Positions 46,969 to 64,000 of a stretch of 64,000 nt of DNA are shown here, piece by piece. This stretch comes from Candidatus Kaelpia imicola (lineage in GTDB: Bacteria; Omnitrophota; Gorgyraeia; Kaelpiales; Kaelpiaceae). The position numbers were made by a program, and so were the translations under genes. Location: positions 28,538 through 92,537 of the forward strand of contig JAVCCL010000020.1 of NCBI GenBank assembly GCA_030765505.1, read 5' to 3'. The notes under the pieces are model-generated. The model saw only the letters and a list, made by a program, of their open reading frames with translations. It did not search any database and had not been told where the DNA came from. Position 1 is the stretch's first letter; the number at the start of each line of letters is the position of its first letter.

Positions 46969-48009
46969 ATGAACAGAGAGAGTATTTTTCTATTTGCGGG
47001 AGGTAGCGGCGGGCATGTCCACCCAGCTTTAGTCTTAAAAAAAGATTTAGAGTCCCGGGGTCATAAAGCGATTTTATTTATAAGCAACTTTTCTCATTTC
47101 GAGGCGGAATCGGGAATTAGAAGTTTTAAAATATCTAGACTGAAACTATTGGCTTTGATTCAATCTCTCTATATGTTTAATTATCTCTTGGTATTCTTTA
47201 TTTTAAAGAATACCAGTGTTGCCGTAGGGTTTGGCGGATATTATTCATTGGCGGGAATAGTAGCCGCAAAGATTCTTGGGAAGAAGACTTTTATATATGA
47301 ACCCAACATGGCGCTGGGGCGGTCCAATAGAATATTAGCTTATTTTGTAGATAGGATTTTAGTTTTATGGCCAGAGATATCTTTAAAATCTAAGTTAGGG
47401 TTCAAGATTAGAAGAATCAGGCCTTTAATAAGAAGAGAGAGCAGCTTAGTTGTAAAAGATAAGAGATGGCCATTCTCTATTCTGTTTGCAGGCGGGAGTT
47501 CTGGCTCAATGTTTTTAAACAATCTTTTTACAGAGATTATTCAAGGTGGCTTTTTAAGAGGCCAAGACTTAAGGCTTGTTCTCATAACGGGAGATAAGTT
47601 TTACCGCAAAGTCAAAGAGAGAATTGACGGTTTGAATATTAACAACAATCTTAATGTAGAGGTTTATAGTTTTCGCAATGATATGGAAATTTTTCTTGAT
47701 GATTTTGATTTTCTTATTTCCCGTGCCGGAGCTCAGATTATAGTTGAATCAATCTTCTCTGAGCTTCCGACGCTCTATATTCCTTATCCTTACGCTAAAG
47801 AGCATCAGCTTGAGAATGCGAGAAATATGCTGAGTAAGAGAGGTTCTTTTCTTATCAGGCAGGAACTGGCAGATGTAGAAGTTGTTGCTGGTTTTACGAA
47901 ATATATAGCAAGAGATAGAGAGGGTCTGAATCGGGTAAAAGTTAAATTGAGGCAGCTTAAGGGCAATTTCGAAAAAGCGGACAGGTCTATCGATATTATT
48001 TTAAAATGA
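46969..48009 (+). CDS. murG: Undecaprenyldiphospho-muramoylpentapeptide beta-N-acetylglucosaminyltransferase MurG.
   Basis: GT28 N-terminal glycine loop (FAGGSGGHVHPAL). C-terminal ENARNML-type motif (HQLENARNM). 346 aa. Confidence 0.85.
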   Translation: MNRESIFLFAGGSGGHVHPALVLKKDLESRGHKAILFISNFSHFEAESGIRSFKISRLKLLALIQSLYMFNYLLVFFILKNTSVAVGFGGYYSLAGIVAAKILGKKTFIYEPNMALGRSNRILAYFVDRILVLWPEISLKSKLGFKIRRIRPLIRRESSLVVKDKRWPFSILFAGGSSGSMFLNNLFTEIIQGGFLRGQDLRLVLITGDKFYRKVKERIDGLNINNNLNVEVYSFRNDMEIFLDDFDFLISRAGAQIIVESIFSELPTLYIPYPYAKEHQLENARNMLSKRGSFLIRQELADVEVVAGFTKYIARDREGLNRVKVKLRQLKGNFEKADRSIDIILK

Positions 48010-49364
48010 ACAGGAAGACCTCGTATTATTTAATTGGTATCTGTGGTATAGGTATGAGTTCGCTGGCTCAGCTTATTCAAAGCAGAGGTTTTAAAGTTAG
48101 AGGTTCGGATGCAAGTCCTGATGTTTTAATAGAAAGAAAACTGAGCTCTTTAGGTATTGAAGTATATTTTTCCCATGAAGCTGGAAGAATCAGAGAGAGC
48201 GATATAGTTGTCTATTCGACGGCTGTAGGGAAGAGTAATCCTGAATATATCGAAGCTAAAGGGAAGAACTGCGTTCTACTGCACAGGACATCTGCTCTGG
48301 TTGAAATGCTAAAGGACAGAAAATCCATTGCTGTTACGGGGACTCATGGTAAGACTACAATGACATATCTTCTTGCCTCTGTTCTAAGAAACTATGGTTT
48401 TGACTCGGGAATGATTTTAGGAGGCATATCAAAAGAGATAAACAATAATTTTATTCCCTCTAATTCAAATTATATTTTGGAATTGGATGAGAGTGACAGA
48501 AGTTTTCAGATTTTAGATTCTGATTTAAAGGTATTTACCAGTTTAGGTAATGACCATCTTGAATTTTACAATAATGATTTCTCTGAATTAAAGAGAGAGT
48601 TCAGGTGTTATATGCAAAAAGAAGGAGTTAATATTATATCCGCAGATGATAATTATCTGGTAGAGCTGGCAGAGGCAAGCTCTCTAAAGTATCTTAGTTT
48701 CGGATTTGGACCTAAAGCTGATTATAGGGGTGAATTAGTGGATAAAGGAGATTTTTTCTCAAAGATAAAGCTTTATAAGAACGGTAGTTTTATAACTGAA
48801 TATACTTTGCCCCTTATAGGCTATAAGAATGCATCTAATAGTTTAGCAGTATTTGCTCTTGCTGATATCTTAAAATTAGACCTTTTAAAGATTGCAGAAT
48901 CTTTTTCGGGTCTCTCTGGTATTGAGAGAAGGTATGATCTGAAGTTTTGTTCTAAAGCTGTAACTCTTATGGAAGATTATGCCCATCACCCCAGAGAGAT
49001 AGAGGAAGCGATAAGGACAGTTAAGGAATATTTAAAACCGCCAAGGATTTTGGTCGTTTTTCAGCCTCATAGGTATACAAGAACAGAGATGCTCTGGGAT
49101 GATTATAAAACCTGTTTTAAGGGCGGAGATAAGATCTATATTAGCGATATCTATTCAGCTTTTGAAGAGGTTATCCCCAGCATAAATTCCGAGATGCTGG
49201 TTGAGAATATAGGGTCTTCTAATGTTAAGTATGCTAAGATAGATGAGATTGCAGACTTACTGTTAAATGAAGTTAGGGAGGGTGATATGATCCTTCTCTT
49301 AGGCGCCGGCGATATAAACAAGATTTCAAAGAGATTAAGCGAAGGGTTATCAAGCATTGAATAG
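48006..49364 (+). CDS. murC: UDP-N-acetylmuramate--L-alanine ligase MurC.
   Basis: YLIGICGIGMSSLA N-terminus. Mur ligase P-loop VTGTHGKTTMT. 452 aa. Confidence 0.85.
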   Translation: MNRKTSYYLIGICGIGMSSLAQLIQSRGFKVRGSDASPDVLIERKLSSLGIEVYFSHEAGRIRESDIVVYSTAVGKSNPEYIEAKGKNCVLLHRTSALVEMLKDRKSIAVTGTHGKTTMTYLLASVLRNYGFDSGMILGGISKEINNNFIPSNSNYILELDESDRSFQILDSDLKVFTSLGNDHLEFYNNDFSELKREFRCYMQKEGVNIISADDNYLVELAEASSLKYLSFGFGPKADYRGELVDKGDFFSKIKLYKNGSFITEYTLPLIGYKNASNSLAVFALADILKLDLLKIAESFSGLSGIERRYDLKFCSKAVTLMEDYAHHPREIEEAIRTVKEYLKPPRILVVFQPHRYTRTEMLWDDYKTCFKGGDKIYISDIYSAFEEVIPSINSEMLVENIGSSNVKYAKIDEIADLLLNEVREGDMILLLGAGDINKISKRLSEGLSSIE

Positions 49365-50196
49365 CACTATCTTTGATGGCTACGGGTATTCGTTAAATCC
49401 TCTCTTTTTGCTTGAGATTTCAACGTTAGAGGAACTAAGGGGTACCGTTATTGATTTAAATAGCAAGTATCTAAGATATATGGTCTTTGGGAGATTAAAG
49501 AATATACTCTTCGCTAATCAGCGGAGCGATATTGTTGTTTTGAAGTTAAACGGCAGCATTTTTAAAAAGATTAAAAGAGAGGGAGATATTTTAGATGTTG
49601 GGGCAGGGGTAGAGGTTTCTGAATTGATGAGATTCTCTATAGATAATTCAATTGAAGGATTAGAGTATATGGTCGGCATCCCTTCTACTATAGCTGGGGC
49701 AGCCGTTGGAAATTCGGGGGCTTTTGGAAAAGAGATTTCCGAGAATATAGTTGAGGTTGAATGTCTAAATACTAAAGGAGAGCTGTTGATTTTAAATCGG
49801 GAAAAAATAGATTTTAAATATCGAGATTCCAATCTGGGAAATTTTATTCTGACCAAGGTGTTTTTGAAAATTGCTCTGGGGTCCAGGGCAGAGATAAAGA
49901 AAAATATGAAAGCTTATATAGAGAGGCGGTTCTATACTCAAGATCTAAGAGAGTCTTCCTGCGGTTGTTTTTTTAAAAACCATCTAGAACATAGAGCGGC
50001 TATTTTGATAGACTCTCTGGGTCTTAAGGGTTACAAAAGGGGCGGAGCCGTTGTTTCTGATAAGCACGCCAATTTTTTAATCAGTCTGGATAATAGTTCT
50101 TCTGAAGATATTCTGTCATTAAAAGATGTCTTGCAGAGGAGAGTTTGGAAAGATAAGAAGTTTTGGCTAGAGCCTGAAGTTAAACTAATATGGTAG
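49357..50196 (+). CDS. murB: UDP-N-acetylenolpyruvoylglucosamine reductase MurB.
   Basis: FAD-binding PCMH-type domain motifs (VGIPSTIAGAAVGNSGAFG). 279 aa. Position in the dcw cluster. Confidence 0.8.
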   Translation: MNSTIFDGYGYSLNPLFLLEISTLEELRGTVIDLNSKYLRYMVFGRLKNILFANQRSDIVVLKLNGSIFKKIKREGDILDVGAGVEVSELMRFSIDNSIEGLEYMVGIPSTIAGAAVGNSGAFGKEISENIVEVECLNTKGELLILNREKIDFKYRDSNLGNFILTKVFLKIALGSRAEIKKNMKAYIERRFYTQDLRESSCGCFFKNHLEHRAAILIDSLGLKGYKRGGAVVSDKHANFLISLDNSSSEDILSLKDVLQRRVWKDKKFWLEPEVKLIW

Positions 50197-51152
50197 CAGA
50201 TTTAAAAAAATATAGGATTGGAGTTTTAAGAGGAGGACCCTCTTCGGAGCGGGAGATATCTTTGCTTTCAGGAGAGTCAGTTTTAGAGATTTTGGAAAAG
50301 AGAGGTTTTGAAGTTAGAGATATTATAGTTCCGGAGAGAAAAGATAGGAAATATTTAAAAAGCTGGATTTTAAAAGTTTTAAAAGAAGAGAAGATAGACC
50401 TCTGCTTTATAGCGTTGCATGGATGGTTTGGTGAAGATGGAAATATTCAGAAAATATTGGACGAATCCAATTATCTTTATACAGGCTCTAATAAGCATGC
50501 CTGCAAAATATCTATGGATAAGATAGCCTCGAAAGATGTTTTTGAAAAGAATCTTATACCAACACCCCGCTATTTTATAGTTGATGCTGAGAGTAAAGTA
50601 AATTGGTCATTGCTTAAATTCCCGGCTATCCTGAAACCTTCTTCTCAGGGTTCAAGTATAGGGATTTATAAGATCAAAGATAGCATCGAAGCAGAATATC
50701 TTATACCTGAGGTTCTCAATTACGATGGAAGAGTTTTGGTCGAGGATTTTATAGAAGGAATAGAACTTACCGTTGGAATAGTGGAAGATAAGCCTCTTGC
50801 TGTAATCAAAATATCTTCCTCCAGTGATATTTATAATTATGAAGTTAAATATACTGATGGCTTAAGCAGCTACTCAATTCCGGCTGATATAGATAAAAGA
50901 TTGACTGAGAGAGTTCAAGGATTAGCTCTTAAGGCTCACCGGGCGATAGGATGCAATATGTTTTCTAGAGTAGATATACTATATTCAACGGTTAGAGATG
51001 AGGTTTTTGTTTTGGAGGTCAATACTATTCCCGGACTTACGAAAATTAGCCTTTTACCCAAAGCTGCCAAAGTTTGCGGGATTGAATTTGACGAACTAGT
51101 ATTAAAAATGTTAGAATCTGCCTTCAAGGGAGAGAGATGTTTAAGAAGATAG
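50190..51152 (+). CDS. ddl: D-alanine--D-alanine ligase Ddl.
   Basis: ATP-grasp motifs (IALHGWFGEDG, ILKPSSQGSSIGI, LEVNTIPGLT). 320 aa. Confidence 0.85.
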   Translation: MVADLKKYRIGVLRGGPSSEREISLLSGESVLEILEKRGFEVRDIIVPERKDRKYLKSWILKVLKEEKIDLCFIALHGWFGEDGNIQKILDESNYLYTGSNKHACKISMDKIASKDVFEKNLIPTPRYFIVDAESKVNWSLLKFPAILKPSSQGSSIGIYKIKDSIEAEYLIPEVLNYDGRVLVEDFIEGIELTVGIVEDKPLAVIKISSSSDIYNYEVKYTDGLSSYSIPADIDKRLTERVQGLALKAHRAIGCNMFSRVDILYSTVRDEVFVLEVNTIPGLTKISLLPKAAKVCGIEFDELVLKMLESAFKGERCLRR

Positions 51153-51895
51153 ATTACGAAAAAATAAAAATCGCGTTCTTTTTTCTAAACTGGGCTGTTT
51201 TAATTCTACTTTTGGTTTGGTTCTTCAATATTATGCAAAATTATAAGGTCTCTTCGTCTAGTTTTAGCATAAAAGAGGCCAAGGTTATTTTTAGCGATGG
51301 TTCAGGATTAGATAAGAGTAATGCGTTTAGATATTTAAATATCAAAAAAGGCGACTCTATTTTTAAGATAGACCCAATTGTAAAAATTAAAGAGATTTTC
51401 AAAAAGCATCCCGAGATACTTAAGCTCAGTCTTTATAAGCAGATGCCTAATAAGATTATGGCTATTGTTACAAATAGAATTCCCGTGGCTCAGATTCATT
51501 TAGGGCGCTATTATCCGCTGGATGCAGAAGGCTTTGTGTTGCCATTCCCCAGCAATTTCCGCATTGAGTCTCTACCTCTCGTTAAAGGGGTCAATCCGGG
51601 GGAAGTTGCGGTGGCTAGCGATGCTGACAATGCTAAGATAGACTCAGCTTTAGAGCTGTTGAATTTGATAGAGTCTGTTTTGGGTGAAAGAGGCATCAAT
51701 TTTGATATTGATGTTAATAGTGTCGAAGATATCAATCTTATACTTACTAATGATATTAAGGTCAAGTTGGGTAGAGGCGGCTTCAAGGATAAGCTGATAC
51801 GTTTAAAGGTAGTCTTAATCGATATGGAAGCCAAGAAGTTAAATCCGGCTATCATAGATTTAAGATTCGATAAGGTTGTTTTAATACCACGTTGA
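51137..51895 (+). CDS. ftsQ: Cell division protein FtsQ (POTRA domain).
   Basis: N-terminal TM helix, POTRA-like segment, beta-rich C-terminal domain. 252 aa. Between ddl and ftsA. Confidence 0.6.
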   Translation: MFKKIDYEKIKIAFFFLNWAVLILLLVWFFNIMQNYKVSSSSFSIKEAKVIFSDGSGLDKSNAFRYLNIKKGDSIFKIDPIVKIKEIFKKHPEILKLSLYKQMPNKIMAIVTNRIPVAQIHLGRYYPLDAEGFVLPFPSNFRIESLPLVKGVNPGEVAVASDADNAKIDSALELLNLIESVLGERGINFDIDVNSVEDINLILTNDIKVKLGRGGFKDKLIRLKVVLIDMEAKKLNPAIIDLRFDKVVLIPR

Positions 51896-51923
51896 AATTA
51901 AAAGCCAGGAGAAGTTTTTAGGT

Positions 51924-53102
51924 ATGCTCAAGTATGCTCTAGATATTGGCTCTACAAAATTGAGATTTGCTGCTGCAGGTTCGACAGATAGTGAATTGAA
52001 AATTTTGGGATATTTAACATCCAAAGTAGAGGGTTATTCAGGAGGAGTAATAACTGACTATAAGAAGTTGTTTTTTTCTATTTTAAAAATTATAAAAGAG
52101 TTCGAAAAACAATATAATAGTAAACCTAAAAAGATTTTGCTTAACTGTTCTCATCCGGATAGTAAGTTTTATCATTTGCGAGAGGTTTTCCAAAGAGATA
52201 TTTCTGAGCGGCCGATTTCGAATAAAGAGTTAAGGCGTTTAAGGAGCCAAGTCTTGCAGGATAAGATCGGCCTTGAAGAGGAAAAGATATTAATTCAGAT
52301 CGAAGAGTATATTATAGACGGGCAGAGAGGAGTTATAAGCCCAGAGAGGATGGTTGCCAGAAGCATAGAGGTTCTACTCAATGTGATCACTGTCCCAGTT
52401 AATTTTTTTAATAATATTCTTTCTATTTTTTCAGAGATAGGGATAGAGTTGGAAGCTATTATTCCAGAGGCTATAGCCAAGGCTAGTCTCTATTTGGATC
52501 CAGAAGATAAGAAGGCAGGCGTAATGCTTTTGGATATTGGATGGTCTAAAGCTAAGATGGTTCTCTTTGAAGGCAGCGTATTAAAAAATAGCATTGTTTT
52601 TGAAAGTGGTTTTAATGATATTTTCAAAAGATTAAAAGGGATATATCATTTAGATGATCTAGAAGCAGACAAGGTTTTAAATGAAGCTTTGGTTACAGAG
52701 AAAGAGAGTATAATGCTTCAAAGCGAAGAAGGCATAAAAGAGGTCTCTGTTGAAAATGTATGCCAGATTATAGAGAGGGGTTTTAGGAAGAACCTCTATT
52801 TTATTAAAAAGGCTATGGACTCAAAAGATATCTCTCATCTTCTTGCAGGAGGAATATTTATAACAGGAGGTTCTATTTTAAAATATCCAAACTTAAAGGA
52901 GATTGCGGCGGAAATTTTAAAACAACCAGTTATTGTCAAACAGAATAAAATATTTTCTCTGTCACCAGATTATGCAACTGTGATTGGAATGTTGAGTTAT
53001 TCATTTCAAGAGGAGAAAAAGTTTAATGAAAGAGATAAGTGTTGTAGTCTCGTAAAAAAAGGTTTAGGTAAGATTTATCAAATCTTCGATAAGTATTTTT
53101 AG
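51924..53102 (+). CDS. ftsA: Cell division protein FtsA (actin-like ATPase).
   Basis: N-terminal phosphate-1 motif (ALDIGSTKLRFA). Second ASKHA motif (MLLDIGWSKAKMVLF). Glycine-rich adenosine motif (FITGGSIL). 392 aa. Confidence 0.8.
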   Translation: MLKYALDIGSTKLRFAAAGSTDSELKILGYLTSKVEGYSGGVITDYKKLFFSILKIIKEFEKQYNSKPKKILLNCSHPDSKFYHLREVFQRDISERPISNKELRRLRSQVLQDKIGLEEEKILIQIEEYIIDGQRGVISPERMVARSIEVLLNVITVPVNFFNNILSIFSEIGIELEAIIPEAIAKASLYLDPEDKKAGVMLLDIGWSKAKMVLFEGSVLKNSIVFESGFNDIFKRLKGIYHLDDLEADKVLNEALVTEKESIMLQSEEGIKEVSVENVCQIIERGFRKNLYFIKKAMDSKDISHLLAGGIFITGGSILKYPNLKEIAAEILKQPVIVKQNKIFSLSPDYATVIGMLSYSFQEEKKFNERDKCCSLVKKGLGKIYQIFDKYF

Positions 53103-53105: not shown

Positions 53106-54215
53106 GTGAAAATACTTCAAATAATTACTCACCTGGAGATAGGCGGTGCTCAAAAAGCAACTCTTCTTTTATCTCAAGAACTTATAAATAGAGGCCACGA
53201 GGTTGTTGTTTTATCTTCTGCCCAAGGCGGATTATTAAAAGAGTTTAAAGAAAAATTAGGTCCAAATTTTAGAAGTTTATGTTTTTTAAAAAGAGGTATA
53301 AATCCTATTTTTGACCTTTTAGCTTTTTTCTCAGTTTTCATCTATGTAAAAGAACTCAGTTTTGATCTGATCCATACGCACTCTTCTAAAGCCGGCATTT
53401 TAGGGCGCTGGGCTGCTCTCTTCTCATCTGTCAATTCTGTCCATACTGTCCATGGTTTTGCTTTTCATGATTATCAAAATTTTATTTTGAGATACTGTTT
53501 TATTTTGATTGAAAGAGTTACAGCTTTTATATCGGGTAAGATCATATTTGTATCCGAAGAGGTTAAAAAAAAGGCGTTTAAGAATTTTATAGTAACTACC
53601 GAAGAGAAAACAGAGGTTATCTATGAGCTTGTCAAGATTGATCCGCCTGAGCATAGAATAAAAAATAAAGATTTTTTTACAATAGGTATGGTTGCCCCGT
53701 TGAAAGAGCAGAAGAGGCCCGAGGATTTTCTGAAATTTGCGGTATCTTTAAGCAGAATACGCAAAGATGTAAGGTTTGTTTTAGTGGGGGATGGTAAATT
53801 GAGGCCAAAGCTGGAGATAGACGCGAAGAGATCTGGCATTCTATGTAAAGTTGAATTTAAGGGTTGGAGAGATGATGCTTATACCATAATGCAATCTTTT
53901 GATATCTTTGTGCTTACCAGCATCTTCGAGGGTCAACCGCACGTAATAATAGAAGCAATGTCGTTATCAATTCCGGTAATTGCTACTGCGGTTGATGGAG
54001 TAAGGGATTTGGTTTCTCAAGGTGAGAATGGATTTTTAGTCGAGCCTTGTAAGCCCCATGATATAGTATGCTTGGCTAATAGGCTATTAGATGATAAAGT
54101 ATTGAGAGAGTCTATTGGATCTAAAGGACGTAGCTATTTTGAGACTGAGAAAAGGTTTAACTACATTGAAAACATTAGTAAAATCGAAAAGCTGTATGAG
54201 TCTACAATGAAATGA
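53106..54215 (+). CDS. GT4-family (GT-B fold) glycosyltransferase.
   Basis: GTG start 3 nt after the ftsA stop. MKILQIITHLEIGGAQK N-terminus. C-terminal EGQPHVIIEAMSLSIPVIAT (E-X7-E motif region). 369 aa. Confidence 0.8.
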   Translation: MKILQIITHLEIGGAQKATLLLSQELINRGHEVVVLSSAQGGLLKEFKEKLGPNFRSLCFLKRGINPIFDLLAFFSVFIYVKELSFDLIHTHSSKAGILGRWAALFSSVNSVHTVHGFAFHDYQNFILRYCFILIERVTAFISGKIIFVSEEVKKKAFKNFIVTTEEKTEVIYELVKIDPPEHRIKNKDFFTIGMVAPLKEQKRPEDFLKFAVSLSRIRKDVRFVLVGDGKLRPKLEIDAKRSGILCKVEFKGWRDDAYTIMQSFDIFVLTSIFEGQPHVIIEAMSLSIPVIATAVDGVRDLVSQGENGFLVEPCKPHDIVCLANRLLDDKVLRESIGSKGRSYFETEKRFNYIENISKIEKLYESTMK

Positions 54216-55168
54216 ACAGAGTAGAAGTTTTCAACATAATGCTCATCTGTTTCGCGTTCTCTTTTTTCCTTTCTAAGTTTTTCTATAAAAAGAAAATCAA
54301 AGTAGGCAAAAAAGAGCAATCTACGCACGGTGGAGTTATAATTTTAGCGACAGTTTTTTTGGGAATATTAATATCTCCTTTAAGAGATACGTATTATGTC
54401 TGGAAGCTGTTCCTGCCTTTCTTTTTAATGTTTCTTTTAGGTTTTATCGATGATTATAAGCATCTCTCTCCTTATCCAAAGCTGATTGCCGAAATATTTA
54501 TAATACTTCTCGCGCTCTTTATGGGTTTTAAGACTGAAATCATGTACTTTCCTAGTTATCTTAATTATCTCGTCTCTTTGGTTTGGATTTTGATTTTAAG
54601 CAATGAATTTAATTTTTTAGATATAATGGATGGCCTCTCTTTGGGCAGCATCATAGCCGTGGCTTTGACGTTTACAATAATCGGTTTGATAAACTTTCAA
54701 CCTTTCAATCTTCTTTTTGCGGCAGTTGTTCTGGCCTCCTGCCTGGGTTTCTTTCCTTACAATTACCGTAAAGCATCTGCTTATCTTGGAGATAGCGGCA
54801 GTCTATCGCTGGGCTTGCTTATGGCTATTTTAGCTATATCGTTTAGTTATACGAGAGAAAATAGACCTATGGTCCTATTGACCCCTGTTATTATATTCGG
54901 GCTTCCTATTTTTGATTTTTTATATCTTACGATAAGAAGGGTCTGGCAACGGAAGTCTATTTTGAGAAAAAGTCCTGACCATCTTGCAATACTTATGCAT
55001 ATTAATGGAGCCTCTAGGAAAAGAGTAATATATAAGTTCTGGCTTATATCAGCAGGTTTTGCTTCTACAGCACTATTGCTTCAGTTCGGTTCGAGACTTT
55101 TAGGTGTTGTTGCATTGATTATCTCTATATTCCTTTTCTTTGAAGTTGCTTTACGATGCTATAAATGA
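54212..55168 (+). CDS. Polyprenyl-phosphate N-acetylhexosamine-1-phosphate transferase (MraY/WecA/WbpL PNPT family), a second PNPT paralog inside the dcw cluster.
   Basis: Multi-TM protein with a DD motif (GFIDDYK), NFLDIMDGL and LGDSGSLSLG. Short form of 318 aa. Overlaps the GT4 stop by 4 nt. Confidence 0.75.
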   Translation: MNRVEVFNIMLICFAFSFFLSKFFYKKKIKVGKKEQSTHGGVIILATVFLGILISPLRDTYYVWKLFLPFFLMFLLGFIDDYKHLSPYPKLIAEIFIILLALFMGFKTEIMYFPSYLNYLVSLVWILILSNEFNFLDIMDGLSLGSIIAVALTFTIIGLINFQPFNLLFAAVVLASCLGFFPYNYRKASAYLGDSGSLSLGLLMAILAISFSYTRENRPMVLLTPVIIFGLPIFDFLYLTIRRVWQRKSILRKSPDHLAILMHINGASRKRVIYKFWLISAGFASTALLLQFGSRLLGVVALIISIFLFFEVALRCYK

Positions 55169-56490
55169 AAAAGAGTGTAAATAATTTAATCCTTGGTTCA
55201 GGTATAACAGGGTTGAGCTGCGGCCTACATTTAGGAAATTTAAGTAATAAAAAAGGTGGATTTTCATCAGACTATTTAATCCTTGAAAAAGAGAAGGGTG
55301 TTGGAGGTTTAGCCCGATCTATCAAAAAGAAAGGTTTTGTATTTGACTATAGTGCTCATCTCCTGCATTGCAGGGATCCCTATTTTTCAAAATGGGTGGA
55401 GAATAATCTTAAAAAAAGTCTCAAGTTTCATAAAAGAAATGCCTGGGTCTACTCGCATGGGGTATTTACCAAATATCCTTTTCAGGCAAATCTCTATGGT
55501 TTGCCTAGAGATGTAATAAAGGATTGTCTTTTGGGCCTTTTGAGTTTGAATGGTTTTAGTGATAGTAAGCCCAATAATTTTGAAGAGTGGTGTTATAACA
55601 AATTCGGCAGCGGAATTTCTAAACACTTTATGCTTCCCTACAATGAAAAGTTTTGGAATATAGCAGCTAAAAAAATTACGCTAGAATGGATAGATGGTTT
55701 TATACCTCAGCCGCAGCTTAGGGATATGGTTAAAGGGGGATTTGAATATTCCCATAAAGAGTTTGGCTACCATAGCAAATTTTACTATCCTATTAATGAA
55801 GGGATAGAGCTTATAGTTAAGAAAATCAGTTCAAAATGCAGCAATATAGTACTCAAAGAAAAAGCAGAAAAGATAAACTTAAAAGAGAGATGGGTTTTAA
55901 CCTCTAGAGGCAGAAAGATTTATTACAATAATTTAGTCTCTACTCTTCCTATGGTGGATTTAAACGACATGATTATCGGAATCGATAGCAATATCAGTAA
56001 TCTTTTTCGCAAGTTAAAGTATATCTCTGTTATTAATGTAAATATGGGCATAAAACGGCCGAATATATCCGATAAAGACTGGGTCTATTTTCCGGAAGAC
56101 AACTTCTCTTTTTATCGTATTGGGTTTCCGATGAACTTTGCTCCTTCTTCTACACCTAGCGGTTTTAGCTCAATATATATAGATATCTCTTATTCAGGTT
56201 CTTTGGCTATCAACAAGAGAAAAGAGAGTATTATTGAACGGGTAAAAGCTGATTTGATCAAACTGGGTATTATTGGTGAAGAAGAGAGCATCCCGGTCGT
56301 GGACTATAATGATATTAAGTATGCTTATATACTCTATGATAAAAATTGGTCTCATGCTCGAGGTGGAATTATTGATTATCTTTTAAAAAATTCCGTATAT
56401 TCTGCTGGGAGATTTGGTTCCTGGAGCTATCTCTCTATGGAGGGGTGTTTTTTAGAGGGCAGGAGAATAGCCAATATATTAAAGAGATGA
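55165..56490 (+). CDS. FAD-dependent oxidoreductase, UDP-galactopyranose mutase / amine-oxidase-like.
   Basis: N-terminal dinucleotide-binding loop (ILGSGITGLSCGLHL...EKEKGVGGLARS). 441 aa. Overlaps the previous stop by 4 nt. Confidence 0.55.
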   Translation: MKKSVNNLILGSGITGLSCGLHLGNLSNKKGGFSSDYLILEKEKGVGGLARSIKKKGFVFDYSAHLLHCRDPYFSKWVENNLKKSLKFHKRNAWVYSHGVFTKYPFQANLYGLPRDVIKDCLLGLLSLNGFSDSKPNNFEEWCYNKFGSGISKHFMLPYNEKFWNIAAKKITLEWIDGFIPQPQLRDMVKGGFEYSHKEFGYHSKFYYPINEGIELIVKKISSKCSNIVLKEKAEKINLKERWVLTSRGRKIYYNNLVSTLPMVDLNDMIIGIDSNISNLFRKLKYISVINVNMGIKRPNISDKDWVYFPEDNFSFYRIGFPMNFAPSSTPSGFSSIYIDISYSGSLAINKRKESIIERVKADLIKLGIIGEEESIPVVDYNDIKYAYILYDKNWSHARGGIIDYLLKNSVYSAGRFGSWSYLSMEGCFLEGRRIANILKR

Positions 56491-56511: not shown

Positions 56512-57570
56512 ATGATCTTTGACGACCTATGTCTCTACCTAAGGCTCTATCCTGAAATTTTAAATCTTAGATTTGCGAGAGAGATGATATACTATCTCTT
56601 AAAAGGTGTTAGCAGGCATCCAATATCAATTAATTTTCTAATAACTTCTAAATGTAATTTTAAGTGCAAGATCTGTAGTTATTACGGTAATTCAGGGACT
56701 CATTTTTCAGAGCTGAGCTTTCAGGAATTTGTAGATTTCTTAGATCAGGTTCAAGCTTTTAAACCCTTGATTTTTTTAGGCGGCGGAGAGCCTTTTATAA
56801 GAGAAGATATATATTCCATGTTGGAGGAGATAGAGAAGAGAGAGCTTAAAGTGATAGTGTCGACAAATGGTTATTTGTTAGATTTAGATAGAATATCTTC
56901 TTTAAACTTAGATTCGCTCATCCTCTCTCTATATGGACCTGAGTCGATTCATGATAGTATTACTGGAGTTCCTGGTTCTTATTCTGTAGTTGTTAAAAAA
57001 ATAAAAAAGATAACAGCTGATAATATGGTTAAAAATTTAGTTGTATCTACAATCCTATTGCCTTCAAATTTCAAACATCTCTCTGAGTTCAGTGATTCTG
57101 TTTTTGCTTTAGGAGTTGATTCAATTAAAATTGAAAACCTTAATTATCTAACAGAAGAAGAGTTTGGGAGTTCTACTGAAGAGATGGCCGACCTTATTTT
57201 AAAACCCCATACTCTTGTTTTAGACAAGCATTGCTTCAGCAGAACCGATTTAGAGTATGCTTGGAACAGCATCAATGTTTTAAGAAGAAGATATAAAGGT
57301 AGATTATTTTTGAAGCCAGCTCTAAACAAGAGAGATTTTTTAAAATGGTATTGCGAGGGCAAAACTTTTAAGGGTTGTCATTTTATAAGACATTCTATCT
57401 TTGTCTCATCTTCCGGAGATATTATACCTTGTCAGTTTTTAAGTAAAACTAAGCTTGGAAAAATAGACAAAAATGTTGTAAAATACATATGGAACTCGAA
57501 GAGATATAATGATTTTAGAGAGTTTGTGCAAAGGACTGGCTTAGAAGTTTGTAAACGTTGTTGTAAATAA
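56512..57570 (+). CDS. Radical SAM enzyme with a C-terminal SPASM/twitch-like cysteine cluster.
   Basis: CX3CX2C motif (SKCNFKCKICSY). SAM-binding glycine motif (IFLGGGEPF). C-terminal cysteines (C...CQF...CKRCCK). 352 aa. Confidence 0.75.
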   Translation: MIFDDLCLYLRLYPEILNLRFAREMIYYLLKGVSRHPISINFLITSKCNFKCKICSYYGNSGTHFSELSFQEFVDFLDQVQAFKPLIFLGGGEPFIREDIYSMLEEIEKRELKVIVSTNGYLLDLDRISSLNLDSLILSLYGPESIHDSITGVPGSYSVVVKKIKKITADNMVKNLVVSTILLPSNFKHLSEFSDSVFALGVDSIKIENLNYLTEEEFGSSTEEMADLILKPHTLVLDKHCFSRTDLEYAWNSINVLRRRYKGRLFLKPALNKRDFLKWYCEGKTFKGCHFIRHSIFVSSSGDIIPCQFLSKTKLGKIDKNVVKYIWNSKRYNDFREFVQRTGLEVCKRCCK

Positions 57571-57583
57571 AAGGTTTTAAGTT

Positions 57584-58120
57584 ATGGATTTTGAACAAAA
57601 ATGGAAGAGGGCTGTAAAGAATACTGAAATAGAGAAAGGCTGGGTGGGCTATCTAAATACCAATTCGAGCACAACGCTCTCTTATATAATGCTCTCTGAA
57701 TCGATGCTTGATAATTCAGATACTGTTATCAGAAAAGGCAAGGTCGAAGTAACGCGACCCTTAATATACTTACCGGATAACAACCCTGTATTTGAAGGTT
57801 TTGAATTATCGAGTCAGAATCTATTTAATAGTTCTGTTTTGACTTTTCTTCTGTTGAGAGGAGTAAGTTTTCCTTCTTTAAAATACCAGAATAGTGTTTA
57901 CTCTCTGGATATTGACAATCTCTCTTTGACTGAGGCGGTTAAAAAGCATAAAAGAGAGCTTCAAAGATTGGAGGATGTTAAGACCGGTCTCATAGTAGGG
58001 TCTGATGACTGCTGGCATTACTCTCTTGCTATCTATGTTGCAGCTCTGACCTCTAAATCTGCCTCTAATGACATAGAGAGGTATCTTAAAGATTTAAAGA
58101 GTAGGTTTGAAGATAGGTAG
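57584..58120 (+). CDS. Hypothetical protein (178 aa) with no recognisable domain.
   Basis: ORF immediately downstream of the radical SAM gene (13-nt gap). No signal peptide or TM helix is apparent. Confidence 0.45.
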   Translation: MDFEQKWKRAVKNTEIEKGWVGYLNTNSSTTLSYIMLSESMLDNSDTVIRKGKVEVTRPLIYLPDNNPVFEGFELSSQNLFNSSVLTFLLLRGVSFPSLKYQNSVYSLDIDNLSLTEAVKKHKRELQRLEDVKTGLIVGSDDCWHYSLAIYVAALTSKSASNDIERYLKDLKSRFEDR

Positions 58121-58171: not shown

Positions 58172-59116
58172 ATGGAAGAGAGAGAAGTTTTTGCAAAAGT
58201 TAACAGTTTAATAGAGAACATCGAAAAAGTTATACTGGGAAAGCACGATGCCGTTCAACTGGCAGTAGCTGTATTTCTATCCGAGGGTCATCTATTGATG
58301 GAGGATGTTCCCGGAGTAGGTAAAACTGTACTTGCTAAGTCTATGGCTAAATCATTTTCGGCAAGCTTTAGGAGAATACAATTTACACCCGACCTTCTTC
58401 CTTCAGATGTTACGGGCAGCTATATATTTAACCAGAAAAATTCCGAATTTGAATTTAGGTCCGGTCCGGTCTTTGCTAATATAGTTATAGCTGATGAGAT
58501 TAACCGCGGTACTCCTAGGACGCAGAGCGCTCTTCTGGAGCCTATGGAGGAGTATCAGGTTACTGCGGATGGTAATACTTTTCAACTTGATAGGCCATTT
58601 TTCTTGATAGCTACTCAGAATCCCGTTGAGAGGGAAGGCACCTATTTTCTTCCTATCTCACAGCTGGACAGATTTCTGGTCAAGATGGGTATGGGGTATC
58701 CCGAAAAAGCTGAAGAGATTCAGATTCTTTTAGACAGAGAGAGAGAGGATCCTCTAAATAAAATTGAGGCTGTAATTACCAAAGAAGAAATTCTTGAGAT
58801 TCAAAAATTTGTAAAAGCTATTAAGGTGGATGCTAAGATATACGAATATGTTATCAGCATAACACAGACGACTCGTGAGACTGATAAACTTATTCTGGGA
58901 GCGAGCCCCAGGGCATCTCTTGATCTATTTAGGTTATCTCAGGCTCTGGCACTAATGGAGGAGAGAACATATTGTATTCCTGACGATGTTAAGAAAGCTG
59001 CTCCACTGGTTCTTGCTCATAGGGTTATACCGTCTTCACCTGCAAAGACAGAGATTGGTAATACTCAGGAGATAATTAAAAAACTAGTAAATGAAATCTC
59101 CGTTCCTATCCAATAA
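58172..59116 (+). CDS. MoxR-family AAA+ ATPase.
   Basis: Walker A motif (GVGKTVLAKSMAKSF). Walker B motif (VIADEINR). MoxR-type C-terminal helical domain. RBS AAAGGAGG upstream. 314 aa. Confidence 0.9.
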   Translation: MEEREVFAKVNSLIENIEKVILGKHDAVQLAVAVFLSEGHLLMEDVPGVGKTVLAKSMAKSFSASFRRIQFTPDLLPSDVTGSYIFNQKNSEFEFRSGPVFANIVIADEINRGTPRTQSALLEPMEEYQVTADGNTFQLDRPFFLIATQNPVEREGTYFLPISQLDRFLVKMGMGYPEKAEEIQILLDREREDPLNKIEAVITKEEILEIQKFVKAIKVDAKIYEYVISITQTTRETDKLILGASPRASLDLFRLSQALALMEERTYCIPDDVKKAAPLVLAHRVIPSSPAKTEIGNTQEIIKKLVNEISVPIQ

Positions 59117-60386
59117 TAAGGGTTGCTGTGTTTTAACAGAGTTTGGCTTATATGCTCTGATTGTAGCGGTATTTTTAACTTCTCTTGGTTTTATACTGCA
59201 GTCCAATCTTATCTATCTTGTAGCATCAGGACTCTGGGGGCTTGTTTTGACTGACTTTTTATTTTCTTTTCTCTCCTTGAGAGGAATAAGGGTTACAAGA
59301 TTTGCTCCGACTCATGCAGTTAGAGGTGAGGATTTTAAAATAAGAATAAGATTAGAGAATAGAGGGTTCTCTAAGTACTTAATAAGATTGACTGATAGTA
59401 GTTTTACTGAAAATATATCCGGGGTAGAGCTTCCTATTGTACGTAGTTTAAAAAACAGTGAGATTTTAGAGCTGGATTATATTATGAAAATTAAAGCAAG
59501 GGGTGTTCATAATCTTGAGTCTGTTCAGGCAGAGAGCAGTTTTCCTCTTGGTCTTTGGAGGAGGGTTATAAATTTTCCCTCCAGATCCAAAATTACCATA
59601 TACCCTGAATTTTACGAGGTGCCTCAATTTGCGGTATCTTATAGGGGTATGAGATCGGAGTTTGCAAATACATCTTCTAATAGGCCTGGTATGGGCGGTA
59701 ACTTTTTGCAGATACGAGAGTATCAATACGGGGATAGTTTAAAGAATATTCATTGGAGAGCAACGGCTAGAACAGGAAAGCTTATGGTCAAAGAGCTAGA
59801 GAAATTTACTCTTTCAAACCTTTCTATAGTATTAGATAGTTCCTCTAATATGGTTTTAGGATTGCTTGAAGAGTCCAATTTTGAATATGCAGTTAAAACA
59901 GCTGCAACTATAGCCAACAAAGCTTTGAGTACTCGCTATCATGTAAAGCTTATATACTACAATCAGATTAAAAAGAAGATCGAGTTTAAGAAGGCTTACG
60001 GCCGAATGACTCCAATATTAGACAGCCTTTCTAAGATAGGTACGACGGAGAGGATAAATGTCAAAGATCTCGTAGATGCTTCTATACCTGAGATTGAGAA
60101 GGAGTCTGTTGCGGTTTTTGTCTTACTCTCCCTTAACTCTGATGTTACTCAAAAAATCATACAACTTGCAAATCAGGGTATTGATTCTGTGCTTGTCGTA
60201 TTTGATCCCAGGTCTTTTGCCGCTGTTCTGGATAAGAAGATTGGGAATTTTTATAATGTCTTCTCCCAACTTATGAGCGGAGAAGCGTTCTATTTAACTG
60301 GTGAAGGTATAAGGGTGTATATGGTAAAACATGGCGATCGTATACCTGATGCGTTAAGTAGACCGCATATGTTTTTATCTTCTTAA
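59091..60386 (+). CDS. DUF58-family protein (vWA-like), the usual partner of MoxR ATPases.
   Basis: Two N-terminal TM helices. DUF58 signature (FLQIREYQYGDSLKNIHWRATARTGKLMVKELE). 431 aa. Confidence 0.85.
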   Translation: MKSPFLSNNKGCCVLTEFGLYALIVAVFLTSLGFILQSNLIYLVASGLWGLVLTDFLFSFLSLRGIRVTRFAPTHAVRGEDFKIRIRLENRGFSKYLIRLTDSSFTENISGVELPIVRSLKNSEILELDYIMKIKARGVHNLESVQAESSFPLGLWRRVINFPSRSKITIYPEFYEVPQFAVSYRGMRSEFANTSSNRPGMGGNFLQIREYQYGDSLKNIHWRATARTGKLMVKELEKFTLSNLSIVLDSSSNMVLGLLEESNFEYAVKTAATIANKALSTRYHVKLIYYNQIKKKIEFKKAYGRMTPILDSLSKIGTTERINVKDLVDASIPEIEKESVAVFVLLSLNSDVTQKIIQLANQGIDSVLVVFDPRSFAAVLDKKIGNFYNVFSQLMSGEAFYLTGEGIRVYMVKHGDRIPDALSRPHMFLSS

Positions 60387-60387: not shown

Positions 60388-63300
60388 ATGTTTTATATTA
60401 TTTCATTTTTACTGGTAAGCATTGGCATAACAGCTCTTCCGCTTATTGAAGGAGTGGGCTCCAGCCTGATTCTTGCAGGTTCTATTTTTACTTTTGGTTT
60501 CGTGTTGACGCAGCTGATTAAAAAATTCCACTTTTCAAAAAATGTTGCCAGAGCGTTACTCTTTATTGCCTTAATTATTGGGGTTGGAGCATTCTTTACT
60601 TCAGGTAATTCCGGAGAGTGGGCAATTGTATGGCTGATATGGTATCTTATCCTCTCTTTTCAGGTTATAAGCATCTTTAGCTCTAAAGATGTTAAGGGTT
60701 GGTTTAGCTCTTATCTTTTGAGTTTTATTCAGCTTTCTCTGGGCGGCATTTTTACAGAGAAGCTACTTTTCTTGGTCATCTTCTCTCTTTACCTGGCTTT
60801 ATCAGTATTCGGTTTCATTTTTTTGCTTCCTAAAATAGAGATACGGGACAAAATTTTAAAATTGATAAAACCCCGCTTAGATTTAGCAAAATGGGGTGCC
60901 TTAACAACCGTCAATGTCTTTTTTATAACAGGGTTAGTTTTTCTCATCTTGCCGAGGACTCAAAGCCCACTCTTTGCAGTTAAAAAAGAGATACATCTTG
61001 TTGAGAAGTTAAAAAAAGAAGTTGATTTTACAGAGGAGATGACAGAAGAAGAAGCTGTGAGCCTACCTGAGGAGATTGAGCTGGGAACTATATCCGAATT
61101 AAAAAATGAAAATAAGATGTTGATGTTGATAGAGACGGAGAGACCGTTTCTTTTTAGAGCCCAGGCTTTCAATTATTACGATGGCAGCAGTTGGATTAAA
61201 TACGGCAGTAAGTCCGTAACCATCAAAGTAAAAGATAATAAGATTAATTTTAAACCGCTCTATCTGAGAAAAGAACTCTTTGTTAAAACGACACCTGACA
61301 AGTTTTACCATCAAAAGTTTTATATTAAGAACTATTCTCAAAATCTTATTCTAAGCTCTTACCCTATTATAGGTCTATCTGGTTCAGATGTAGAAAAGAT
61401 TAAGATAGACCATTTTGAAAATATTTATTTACAGAGAAAACTTAAGTTTGGAGATGAATATGAGGTAATCTCTGTTGATAAGAGCTATCCTTCTAATTAT
61501 CTGAGGTCGCTGCCGAGGAAGTACCCCAGAGAGATTATGGATCTATACCTTCAGCTTCCGCCCAATATAGATAAAAGATTGATGGATTTGACTTCTAAGA
61601 TTTTAAAATATACACCCACCAATATTTACGATGAATTGATAACTCTTAGGAAATATTTGAAAGAGCATTGTATCTATAGTCGGTTAAATACCGGCAAAAG
61701 CCCGACGCTGTATGAATTCCTCTTTGATAAAAAGCCTGGTGATTGCGAGTATTTTGCAACAGCTTTGGCTTTAATGCTGCGTTATCGTAATATTCCTACG
61801 CGTTTTGTCATAGGGTTCTCAGGGGGGGAGTTTGATTCTCAGAAGAGAACCTCTATTATTTATGCAAAGAATGCTCATGCTTGGATAGAGGTTTTCTTCC
61901 CTACTATAGGATGGTTGCCCTGCGATGCAACCCCTAAGGCTCTTCTTCAAGAGCAGTGGGAAGAAGCCCCTAAGATGTTAGCCTTAAAACCTCAAGATTA
62001 TCCAGAGGATAGAGGATTTGCTGGCGAAAGCGGCAGCGGTGAGACGGCTGATTCAAAGCAGAGCTTAGAGAGGCAGGAGATTGCCGGGGAGGGTATTCCC
62101 GAGGAAGAGCTCTTGCCGCAGGATTATTATTTCAAAGATAGGTTATCTCAACATGGTTTTACTAAAGAGGAGATTGTTTTTTCAGAAGAATTTTTTGAAG
62201 AGGCGGCTACTCCTGCTGAATTAGCTGCCGAAGAAGAGGATCTATCCGGTCAAGGTTATACTGGAGATAAAGAGATAGCTACATTTGAAGAAGAGAGAGC
62301 CGAAGGCCTTTTAAGAGAGGATGAAGTAACCGAGGAGATTTTTACAGAAGAGGAGGCAGAGGAGTGGTTCTATAGAGAAGAAGGAGCGTTTAAAGAAGAG
62401 GAAGTAGAAGCAGAGACTGAATCAATAAGTGAGGATGATGTTTTTGAAGAAGTCGCTTTTTCAGAAGAAAGGGTAGAGACTGCTGTTAAAATAGAAAAGG
62501 AGCCGGCTGAAGGTGAGACTCTTGAAGAAGATTTAGCATCTTTTTATCAAGATAGTGAGGATTTAGGATTTACCGAAATAGCATCCGGGCTTGAACAGGA
62601 AGAAAAAGTTGTTGAAGAAGAAGTTTTGGAAGAAAAAAAATTAGCATCTCTGCCTAAAGAGCTTGAAGAAGGTTCAGTAAGAGTCGATTTAGAAGATGAA
62701 TTTAAAAAAGAAGATTTTGGCAAAGAGGAGGATCCTGCTGACTCTTCTTCTATTACGGAAGCTTCTTTAGAAGAAGGGATATCTGAACAAGAGTATCTTT
62801 CTGAAGAACTGTTATCTTCTGGTGATGTTGAGGTAGCGGAAAAAGACGTGCTCTCTGATGAAGGATTGACAATGGAAGACAGTGTTCCTTTGGAGCAAGA
62901 AGTGCTTCTGGATCAAGAGATTCAAGACCAAGAGATTGCTTCAGATCTATATCTGGATTCTTCTGTGTCGCCTGGAATTCCTATAACGGCTATGGACGAG
63001 GAAGAAGAGGGAGAGATTACAGAATTAATAGATGAAGAAGATGATATTATCCCTGATTTAGATATTGTCGAAGAGGAGGTTGCTTTAGAAGAGGATGTAA
63101 TATTAGAAGAACTGCCCGCTGAAGATCTGGTATCAGAAGAAGAATCATTAGAAGAGAGTGAAGAAGTTGCTTTTGAAGAAGATACAACATTGGAAGAGGA
63201 GATGGTTCAAGAGGATGATGTTTTTGAAGAAGTTTTAGAAGAGAGTGCGGAGACTATTATTAAAGAGGATGTGGTTGAGGGAGAGGTATCTGAAGAAGAG

Positions 63301-64000
63301 GATGTTTTGGGTGAAGTTGAGGTTGATAGCGAGAAAGAAGATTTAAAAATTGTTGAAGATATTGTACTAGAAGAGATAGGGGAGGCGGAAGAGTTTTTAA
63401 TTGAGGATATAGATGTTGCCCAAGAATTTACTCAAGCCGAAGAAATAATAGAAAATGATCTTCCTGAAAGAGAGATAGCTGCTTTAGATATCGGTACTGA
63501 AGTTAAAGAAGAAAAGCTCTTTGATGATATTCCCGAGATAGTTGAAGAGGAGTCTGTTCCAGAGGTATTATTGCCTGAAGATATTGAAGATAAGTTAGAA
63601 GATTCTCTGGGTAAGAATATTCTTTTTAAAGATGATTTTGAATTGATTGTTGAAGAAGATCTATCAAGGATTGAGGATGTTGCAGGAGAAGAGTTTGAGG
63701 CTGAAGATGTTTCAGTTGAAGATATGATCCCAGAAGAGGATTCAATTTCAGGTGAATTAGGCTTCTTGTTTAACATTTTAAAAGATAAGCTCAAAGAGTG
63801 GATTTTTGGATTCTCTTACTATACTCAAGCTCTAATAGTAGATTTTATTAAAGGTATATTTGTAGGTATTAAGAGTTTCATTTACGGAATAGGTGCTATC
63901 ATTTATAGTCATCTTAAAAATAATAAGACACCGTATTCTTTATCTATTGTTACATTCTTTGTGGCGTTTTTACTCTGGGCGCTGTTTAAAGAATTAATCA
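60388..64000 (+). CDS. Transglutaminase-like (TgpA-type) polytopic membrane protein with a very long acidic low-complexity insertion. 3' truncated by the window edge.
   Basis: ATG at 60388, one nucleotide after the DUF58 stop. Seven N-terminal TM helices (DUF3488-like). Transglutaminase Cys-His-Asp core (GDCEYFATALALMLRY...AHAWIEVFFPTIGWLPCDATP). Then a glutamate-rich stretch of roughly 590 aa and at least two C-terminal TM helices. The ORF is still open at 64000. Confidence 0.8.
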   Translation, partial: MFYIISFLLVSIGITALPLIEGVGSSLILAGSIFTFGFVLTQLIKKFHFSKNVARALLFIALIIGVGAFFTSGNSGEWAIVWLIWYLILSFQVISIFSSKDVKGWFSSYLLSFIQLSLGGIFTEKLLFLVIFSLYLALSVFGFIFLLPKIEIRDKILKLIKPRLDLAKWGALTTVNVFFITGLVFLILPRTQSPLFAVKKEIHLVEKLKKEVDFTEEMTEEEAVSLPEEIELGTISELKNENKMLMLIETERPFLFRAQAFNYYDGSSWIKYGSKSVTIKVKDNKINFKPLYLRKELFVKTTPDKFYHQKFYIKNYSQNLILSSYPIIGLSGSDVEKIKIDHFENIYLQRKLKFGDEYEVISVDKSYPSNYLRSLPRKYPREIMDLYLQLPPNIDKRLMDLTSKILKYTPTNIYDELITLRKYLKEHCIYSRLNTGKSPTLYEFLFDKKPGDCEYFATALALMLRYRNIPTRFVIGFSGGEFDSQKRTSIIYAKNAHAWIEVFFPTIGWLPCDATPKALLQEQWEEAPKMLALKPQDYPEDRGFAGESGSGETADSKQSLERQEIAGEGIPEEELLPQDYYFKDRLSQHGFTKEEIVFSEEFFEEAATPAELAAEEEDLSGQGYTGDKEIATFEEERAEGLLREDEVTEEIFTEEEAEEWFYREEGAFKEEEVEAETESISEDDVFEEVAFSEERVETAVKIEKEPAEGETLEEDLASFYQDSEDLGFTEIASGLEQEEKVVEEEVLEEKKLASLPKELEEGSVRVDLEDEFKKEDFGKEEDPADSSSITEASLEEGISEQEYLSEELLSSGDVEVAEKDVLSDEGLTMEDSVPLEQEVLLDQEIQDQEIASDLYLDSSVSPGIPITAMDEEEEGEITELIDEEDDIIPDLDIVEEEVALEEDVILEELPAEDLVSEEESLEESEEVAFEEDTTLEEEMVQEDDVFEEVLEESAETIIKEDVVEGEVSEEEDVLGEVEVDSEKEDLKIVEDIVLEEIGEAEEFLIEDIDVAQEFTQAEEIIENDLPEREIAALDIGTEVKEEKLFDDIPEIVEEESVPEVLLPEDIEDKLEDSLGKNILFKDDFELIVEEDLSRIEDVAGEEFEAEDVSVEDMIPEEDSISGELGFLFNILKDKLKEWIFGFSYYTQALIVDFIKGIFVGIKSFIYGIGAIIYSHLKNNKTPYSLSIVTFFVAFLLWALFKELI
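62000..63760 (+). repeat. GAA/GAG-rich coding low-complexity region (poly-acidic, glutamate-rich) with internal imperfect repeats.
   Basis: Hundreds of Glu/Asp codons. The exact 23-mer gaggatgatgtttttgaagaagt occurs twice (62431-62453 and 63211-63233), each encoding EDDVFEEV. Confidence 0.7.

Follow-up and report, generated by a model that had tools for sequence, protein, structure and literature searches.

When a radical S-adenosylmethionine (SAM) enzyme is encoded directly beside a protein without any recognizable domain, is the second protein the substrate or partner of the first, or only its neighbor? This question is raised by a locus of Candidatus Kaelpia imicola (Omnitrophota), of whose metagenome-assembled genome (MAG) a 64-kb stretch, referred to below as the window, was analyzed. 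An open reading frame (ORF) of 352 aa at 56512..57570 (+), hereafter rSAM, carries the Pfam Radical_SAM and SPASM domains and belongs to an uncharacterized, twitch-type family. It is followed at 57584..58120 (+) by an ORF of 178 aa, hereafter p178. The original prediction, made from the sequence alone, saw in rSAM a peptide or protein maturase of the AnSME, PqqE or sactisynthase type and in the 178-aa protein its possible substrate or partner. Both ORFs were found in place, and their many homologues establish both as genuine conserved genes. The nearest database entry of either protein is 100% identical to it and comes from a MAG of this organism. The analysis leans towards a joint reading of the locus, in which rSAM would be a sugar-tailoring, BtrN-like twitch enzyme of an envelope-glycan cassette and p178 an independent neighbor by descent. 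The idea that the 178-aa protein is a substrate or partner of rSAM is weak.

Domains and cysteine pattern of rSAM

The assignment of rSAM to the radical SAM superfamily (PF04055) is based on both its motif and its core profile. As foreseen, a canonical CX3CX2C motif (CNFKCKIC), the predicted SAM-cleaving [4Fe-4S] site, is present at residues 48-55 (56653..56676, +) and is invariant in the family. The two Pfam models score above their cut-offs (Radical_SAM, 62.5 bits against 29.5; SPASM, 45.1 bits against 21.5). A search for a TIGRFAM-type subfamily, suggested together with the original prediction, returned no equivalog: none of 61 NCBIfam radical SAM models reaches its cut-off with rSAM, the best scoring 88 bits versus the 380 required. 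The family itself comprises about 50 clusters above 140 bits, and 23 of its members, with 31-81% identity, were brought together in an alignment (A4). Eight cysteines are invariant in these 23 sequences (C48, C52, C55, C289, C307, C347, C350 and C351), as is the GGGEPF motif at residues 90-95. All 23 proteins stop 1-2 residues past a C-x-R-C-C-K sequence, which in rSAM closes the tail ...IIPCQF...VCKRCCK at the very end of the protein.

The class of the enzyme is suggested by its C-terminal region. The complete SPASM domain is characterized by a seven-cysteine motif, CX9-15GX4C-gap-CX2CX5CX3C-gap-C, which binds two auxiliary clusters (PMC6231123); the twitch domain is a shortened SPASM domain with one auxiliary cluster (PMC6231123, PMC9012708). 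Domains of this shortened kind are those of BtrN, MoaA and SkfB. The corresponding pattern of rSAM, C289-x12-G-x4-C307 ... C347-x2-C350-C351-K-stop, contains the first four cysteines only, and the CX5CX3C...C part is absent. The Pfam SPASM model still matches residues 289-350 because its 67-position profile spans only the first part of the motif. When the last 83 aa of rSAM were compared with all PDB sequences, the best match was the twitch domain of BtrN, with a marginal E-value of 0.017. This alignment pairs C289, C307, C347 and C350 with C169, C187, C232 and C235 of BtrN, which we take to be its four auxiliary-cluster ligands. The auxiliary cluster of BtrN is fully ligated by four cysteines (PMC6231123, PMC10337720).

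The SPASM/twitch-type C-terminal Fe-S domain that had been expected is predicted here at residues 289-352 (57376..57567, +), and its cysteines align to twitch positions, which in such domains lie on either side of a beta-hairpin and after the helix alpha-2' and can ligate a single cluster. The hairpin segment GDIIPCQ aligns with those of SkfB and CteB. Searched against the PDB, the profile of the rSAM family found SkfB (also of the twitch type), CteB, BlsE, BtrN, GDGT-MAS and PqqE as its best matches, all of them remote and mainly confined to the radical SAM core. Since the four-cysteine pattern falls on the BtrN register and the protein ends there, rSAM is predicted to be a twitch enzyme with one auxiliary cluster rather than a SPASM maturase with two. 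The segment ahead of the CX3CX2C motif is only 43 residues long, which leaves no room for a RiPP recognition element (RRE; RiPP, a peptide made by the ribosome and modified after translation), and neither a PqqD nor an RRE domain of Pfam was matched in rSAM.

Gene neighborhoods of the rSAM family

Three genes of glycan type lie immediately upstream of rSAM in the window. The first encodes a GT4-family (Glycos_transf_1) glycosyltransferase (53106..54215, +), identified with Pfam and NCBIfam. The second encodes another polyprenyl-phosphate sugar-phosphate transferase of the MraY/WecA type (54212..55168, +; Pfam Glycos_transf_4, 100 bits), distinct from the true mraY at 43502-44587; it scores well under the mraY and WecA equivalog cut-offs of NCBIfam. 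The third encodes an FAD enzyme (55165..56490, +; Pfam Amino_oxidase and NAD_binding_8) that matches the UDP-galactopyranose mutase (UGM) of Aspergillus (3UKA/3UTE) with an E-value of 1.4e-39 in a phmmer search of the PDB and aligns over nearly its full length with the Trypanosoma enzyme 4DSG. Its best NCBIfam matches are unnamed PRK07208 models, all under cut-off; judged by these alignments, it is a clear homologue of the eukaryote-type UGM. The three genes are joined to rSAM by 21-bp or overlapping junctions, and spacers of 21 bp and 13 bp precede rSAM and p178, respectively. These spacers leave no room for a precursor-peptide ORF, whose absence had been noted correctly. No terminator-like site was predicted in the relevant spacers, and promoter-like sites occur at chance level (27 observed versus 26.7 expected). 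The order GT4 / WecA-like / UGM-like / rSAM is found again in Candidatus Saelkia (L001; loci of other genomes are designated by such numbers where necessary) and in L013-L016.

The locus had also been described as the end of a division operon. A complete and canonical mraW-ftsI-murE...murG-murC-murB-ddl-ftsQ-ftsA cluster is indeed present upstream (37596-53102). The three glycan genes nevertheless separate ftsA from rSAM, and the co-directional run does not stop at p178: it goes on into a MoxR-type AAA+ ATPase (58172..59116, +; Pfam AAA_3, 202 bits), its partner DUF58 protein (59091..60386, +; Pfam DUF58) and a TgpA-like gene. The description as an operon end thus holds in a loose sense only.

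The neighborhoods of more distant relatives point in the same direction as the upstream cassette. Outside the clade in which rSAM and p178 are paired (delimited below), rSAM relatives are 31-39% identical to the protein of the window and keep the C-x-R-C-C-K ending. Eight such loci were inspected (L008, L009, L010, L093, L094, L095, L173 and L174). Genes for nucleotide-sugar enzymes and glycosyltransferases surround six to seven of them: glycosyltransferases of the GT2, GT4, GT9 or PMT_2 type, NAD-epimerase/dehydratases and UDP-glucose dehydrogenase, accompanied by carbamoyltransferases, AsnB, pairs of EamA genes and B12-dependent radical SAM enzymes (B12-rSAMs). GT2, PMT_2 and GT4 genes and multi-domain radical SAM/SPASM proteins are found in L008 and L174; L009 combines a GT4, a GT1-rSAM fusion, carbamoyltransferases and an NAD-epimerase, and L010 two GT2, a GT9, AsnB and a B12-rSAM fused to YdjC. 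A GDP-mannose-dehydratase-like gene, two small EamA genes, a GT2, a B12-rSAM and a UDP-glucose dehydrogenase are grouped in L094, and an epimerase, a UDP-glucose dehydrogenase and B12-rSAMs in L095. L093 has an AsnB, and L173 a B12-rSAM only. L093-L095 were the only true family members recovered by a metagenome scan with the generic pattern GGEPFx[RK][EKQ]D[IF], which otherwise returned mostly unrelated radical SAM/SPASM proteins. A p178 homologue was found in none of the eight loci. This distribution is consistent with a place of the rSAM family in nucleotide-sugar and lipid-linked glycan pathways, by guilt by association.

The glycan clusters of these other bacteria also hold giant multi-domain proteins (L008, 2848-7086 and 9108-13103; L174, 1042-5295; L009, 1318-3648). 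Examples are a 1412-aa protein with three tandem radical SAM/SPASM modules, a 1331-aa fusion of radical SAM/SPASM and B12-rSAM modules, and a 776-aa GT1-rSAM/SPASM fusion.

The p178 family

The second protein of the pair was correctly described as devoid of recognizable domains: no Pfam or NCBIfam model matches p178, and none matches convincingly in ten distant relatives. It is putatively soluble, with a grand average of hydropathy of -0.38, a pI of 6.2, no hydrophobic or transmembrane segment, a single non-conserved cysteine and no sulfatase-type motif. A word-indexed search gave 25 close cluster representatives, all from Omnitrophota-type MAGs, and an exhaustive profile search gave 253 representatives at 50% identity. 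When distant members were included in the profile, relatives of about 227 aa, all annotated as hypothetical, were detected in Kiritimatiellales, in MAGs of Verrucomicrobia and in the cultured Tichowtungia aerotolerans, whose homologue (CP047593) has 228 aa. By sequence, p178 would represent an unannotated conserved family, Omnitrophota-wide, with a 227-aa form in Kiritimatiellota/Verrucomicrobiota.

Eight residues are invariant throughout this family (T14, Y34, R50, G52, F73, Y101, W144 and S159), and they are kept equally with or without a neighboring rSAM. Members from the paired clade carry substitutions of their own, such as N-x-G to D-N-S near residues 43-45, none of them at an invariant position. 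An AlphaFold2 model obtained from a 23-sequence alignment had a mean predicted local distance difference test (pLDDT) score of 65.5, which rose to 80.4 when it was rebuilt with 80 sequences; in this model the strongly conserved residues 60-103 (PxFEGF...RGxxFPSLKY) form a low-confidence loop. Foldseek returned no significant match for the model (best E-value 0.18 in the PDB; 0.015 with a TM-score of 0.32 in BFVD, a viral library), and no match to an RRE or PqqD fold was obtained. The family profile matched nothing in the PDB at E-values up to 10, and a scan of the 80 members of alignment A3 gave scattered Pfam and NCBIfam matches only, with E-values above 0.002.

Several candidate identities appeared among these non-significant matches. 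RNase H-like folds recur in the Foldseek output (EndoV, RNase H/HII/HIII, the RuvC domain of Cas12 and the nuclease of the phage large terminase), and the predicted order of secondary structures, b1-b2-b3-a-b4-a-b5-a, is that of an RNase H-like fold. The TM-scores do not exceed 0.35 and the acidic residues show no invariant catalytic set, so that this likeness was retained as a lead only. An FbiB/nitroreductase identity, obtained with an E-value of 0.003 in one distant relative, was not reproduced in the others and was rejected; the p178 locus of L005 has nitroreductase neighbors. Ribonuclease_3 matches in nine of the 80 members (best E-value 0.019) were judged to be noise from the C-terminal helices.

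Adjacency of rSAM and p178 across genomes

The linkage of the two genes was examined in a set that represents each GTDB species by one genome. Scanning it gave 172 relatives of p178, and the 80 best loci were retrieved together with flanks of at most 10 kb to the left and right. All their ORFs were searched with a hidden Markov model of the rSAM family, and the 63 loci with at least 1.2 kb of upstream sequence were considered assessable. A family member lies directly upstream of p178 in five of them (404-457 bits), and none is found anywhere in the locus in the other 58. The co-occurrence that had been expected is therefore real within one clade and does not extend further, 58 of 63 p178 loci and all eight outside rSAM loci being unpaired. 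The paired set consists of the window and eight further loci, standing for seven lineages of a Kaelpia/Saelkia/4484_49 clade. A neighbor-joining tree built from 87 sequences of p178 groups the eight paired ones in one exclusive clade. As the paired sequences are monophyletic, their adjacency to rSAM represents a single ancestral arrangement, that is, one event. MoxR and DUF58 genes follow p178 in the window and in all eight other paired loci, and neither is present within 10 kb in any of 75 p178 loci outside this clade. In the 4484_49-like loci L002, L003 and L019, a convergent gene with GGDEF and HD domains is inserted between p178 and MoxR (8524-10035, -, in L002/L003; 2846-4384, -, in L019), with an overlap of about 14 nt at the stop codon of p178.

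Elsewhere, p178 has varied neighbors that differ from lineage to lineage: MalQ (12 loci), GlmS (10), GyrA (9), an M16 peptidase (7), Mrp (6), RlmN (4), and also GyrB/DnaN, a T2SS-type ATPase, an RRM protein and Dtd. The gene stands repeatedly just past a dnaN-DUF721-like-gyrB-gyrA group and ahead of glmS or malQ (L017-L092, p178 loci of other Omnitrophota). In a few lineages it adjoins a radical SAM gene of the RlmN type (the four loci above) or the Mrp/ApbC Fe-S carrier (the six loci above). The 227-aa relatives of Tichowtungia and of a JGI contig are found in unrelated contexts.

Proposed role of rSAM and alternative explanations

On the basis of these observations, rSAM is most likely the tailoring enzyme of the upstream GT4 / WecA-like / UGM-like cassette. 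It would contain one SAM-cleaving [4Fe-4S] cluster and one auxiliary cluster fully ligated by cysteines. We infer that the 5'-deoxyadenosyl radical would abstract hydrogen from a carbon in the sugar of a nucleotide- or polyprenyl-linked substrate; the substrate radical would then be oxidized, epimerized or rearranged, with the auxiliary cluster accepting or relaying the electron in the way proposed for BtrN. The modified sugar would finally be built into a lipid-linked envelope glycan. The protein p178, predicted to be a conserved soluble cytoplasmic protein, would owe its place beside rSAM solely to a single ancestral change of gene order within the Kaelpia/Saelkia/4484_49 clade, and would not be a general substrate or partner of the enzyme.

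Several observations weigh against this explanation. Within the clade, the adjacency of rSAM and p178 is unbroken, in the window and in all eight other loci, with spacers of 13-81 bp, and the UGM-like gene is less tightly linked, being upstream of rSAM in only six of the nine paired loci. In the 4484_49-like loci L002, L003 and L019, the two genes stand on their own as a co-directional pair, with a divergent homoserine dehydrogenase gene on one side and the convergent GGDEF/HD gene on the other, and no glycosyltransferase is found within 8 kb of it. Among the rSAM orthologues whose context was examined, all those with at least 41% identity are paired with p178. The glycan-embedded relatives share only 31-39% identity and could be paralogues of a different function. 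The alignment with BtrN is marginal, as already mentioned.

These points form the case for a clade-specific pair, in which a twitch radical SAM enzyme was recruited to modify p178 or to use it as an accessory or substrate-presenting subunit. This possibility is unlikely, although it deserves to be taken seriously. Beyond the constant adjacency and the persistence of the bicistron without glycan genes, it could draw on the conserved loop at residues 60-103 of p178, a conceivable docking or target region, and on the clade-specific substitutions near residues 43-45. The nine adjacencies, however, derive from a single event and count as one observation. At least 58 species that lack a neighboring rSAM conserve the protein equally well, the enzyme family does without p178 in all eight outside loci, and p178 offers no conserved cysteine, sulfatase-type motif or obvious radical target. 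None of its clade-specific changes touches an invariant position, and the MoxR-DUF58 genes downstream are just as co-conserved, as inherited synteny predicts. The narrower proposal of a dedicated two-gene module, with a glycan-type radical enzyme re-purposed to modify p178 or to work through it, appears less credible still and is rather improbable. The same downstream genes could suggest instead that p178 belongs with MoxR, DUF58 and TgpA, for instance by serving the AAA+ chaperone as adaptor or being its client. Their presence after p178 in all nine paired loci, with TgpA following DUF58 in the window, L001 and L013, speaks for such an association, but it disappears outside the clade (none of 75 loci), and in L002, L003 and L019 the convergent GGDEF/HD gene splits p178 from MoxR; it is very improbable that p178 functions in this way.

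The maturase of the original prediction, an AnSME-, PqqE- or sactisynthase-like SPASM enzyme acting on a nearby peptide or protein, could draw on the Pfam SPASM match and on SkfB and CteB as the top PDB profile matches. ScmE, the ACGX-system radical SAM protein, PqqE and PapB are also among the best NCBIfam models aligned over the full length, all of them far under cut-off. The evidence collected here makes such a maturase the least credible of the explanations, with hardly any probability left. Its seven-cysteine motif is broken off, rSAM ending after C-x2-C-C; the short N-terminal segment holds no RRE, and no small ORF fits into the 21-bp and 13-bp spacers. The sulfatase substrate that an AnSME would require was sought in vain, the open frames of 150 aa or more in the window showing no such signature. 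The context of the family, finally, consists of nucleotide-sugar and glycosyltransferase genes.

Other genes of the window

The division cluster shows peculiarities of its own. Its ftsQ-ftsA end is followed by the glycan genes and not by ftsZ, and the tubulin signature GGGTG[ST]G was found in no frame of the 64-kb window. The last gene of this dcw cluster (51924..53102, +; Pfam, NCBIfam) encodes a divergent FtsA, scoring 124 bits against an equivalog cut-off of 176 bits. At 17907-19280 (+), a 457-aa protein has the unusual architecture of a complete TatD_DNase domain (236.8 bits) fused to a C-terminal Radical_SAM domain (47.8 bits), with its CSNRCYFC motif at nucleotide 18741. At the other end, the TgpA-like ORF (60388-64000, +) runs off the window; it encodes a membrane protein of at least 1204 aa with TgpA_N and Transglut_core domains, whose homologue in L013 has about 1299 aa. 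A jump of the GC skew at 62-64 kb is due to its long acidic low-complexity region, which contains about 26% Glu.

Significance

The joint reading, with rSAM as a sugar-tailoring enzyme and p178 as its neighbor by descent, moves this protein from the RiPP/protein-maturase category to the small and poorly explored group of sugar-tailoring twitch enzymes. It defines a recognizable subfamily, marked by an invariant ...C-x-R-C-C-K terminus and five C-terminal cysteines, that recurs in envelope-glycan clusters of Omnitrophota and of MAGs labelled Spirochaetes and Deltaproteobacteria. This is in effect an unnamed subfamily within the known twitch/SPASM enzymes. In the literature, no paper was found that describes this family or links radical SAM enzymes with UGM or envelope-glycan clusters. 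As radical reactions in the biosynthesis of cell-surface glycans have been little characterized, the family is a reasonable biochemical target. The p178 family deserves to be flagged as well, being conserved and unannotated, with a confident model that has no fold match in the libraries searched (PDB and viral) and a relative in the cultured T. aerotolerans, where genetic study is possible. If the two-gene module were true after all, it would represent a new protein-directed radical SAM system without RRE or peptide precursor, with a fold orphan as p178. Neither the rSAM subfamily nor the p178 family would be very surprising to a specialist.

Comparison with known systems

The genes downstream of p178 correspond to the well-known trio of MoxR-DUF58-TgpA (BatA-type) operons. 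In contrast to its neighbors, p178 is no described component of these operons, and its association with them is confined to one clade. With the SPASM maturases (AnSME, PqqE, CteB, SuiB and MftC), rSAM shares a match to the Pfam SPASM model. It differs from them by the absence of the CX5CX3C...C half, from which the absence of the second auxiliary cluster is predicted, and by the lack of an RRE, of a PqqD-like partner and of a nearby gene for a peptide or sulfatase substrate. The 25 NCBIfam matches listed for rSAM do not include AnSME.

The closer comparison is with BtrN (PDB 4M7T/4M7S), the 2-deoxy-scyllo-inosamine dehydrogenase of butirosin biosynthesis. The similarity is remote, with a profile E-value of 2e-17 that stems mostly from the core, against 0.017 for the twitch domain alone. 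BtrN has about 250 aa versus the 352 aa of rSAM, which contains an extra insert of 80 residues between core and twitch domain; no aminoglycoside genes are found near rSAM, and the fifth invariant cysteine (C351) and the invariant R-C-C-K terminus are specific to the rSAM family. Both proteins nevertheless consist of a radical SAM core and a short C-terminal domain with four cysteines in the common register C-x17-C ... C-x2-C, and both are found in a carbohydrate-type context. In BtrN, the fully cysteine-ligated auxiliary cluster is the proposed electron acceptor (PMC9012708, PMC6231123). Among the better PDB profile matches of rSAM are also BlsE (cytosylglucuronate decarboxylase, 7VOB; E-value 1.5e-18) and DesII (8HZV; 2e-10). 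They match in the radical SAM core only and serve antibiotic biosynthesis, as opposed to an envelope glycan. They act, however, on nucleoside- or nucleotide-linked sugars, the very class of substrates suggested by the gene neighborhoods of rSAM.

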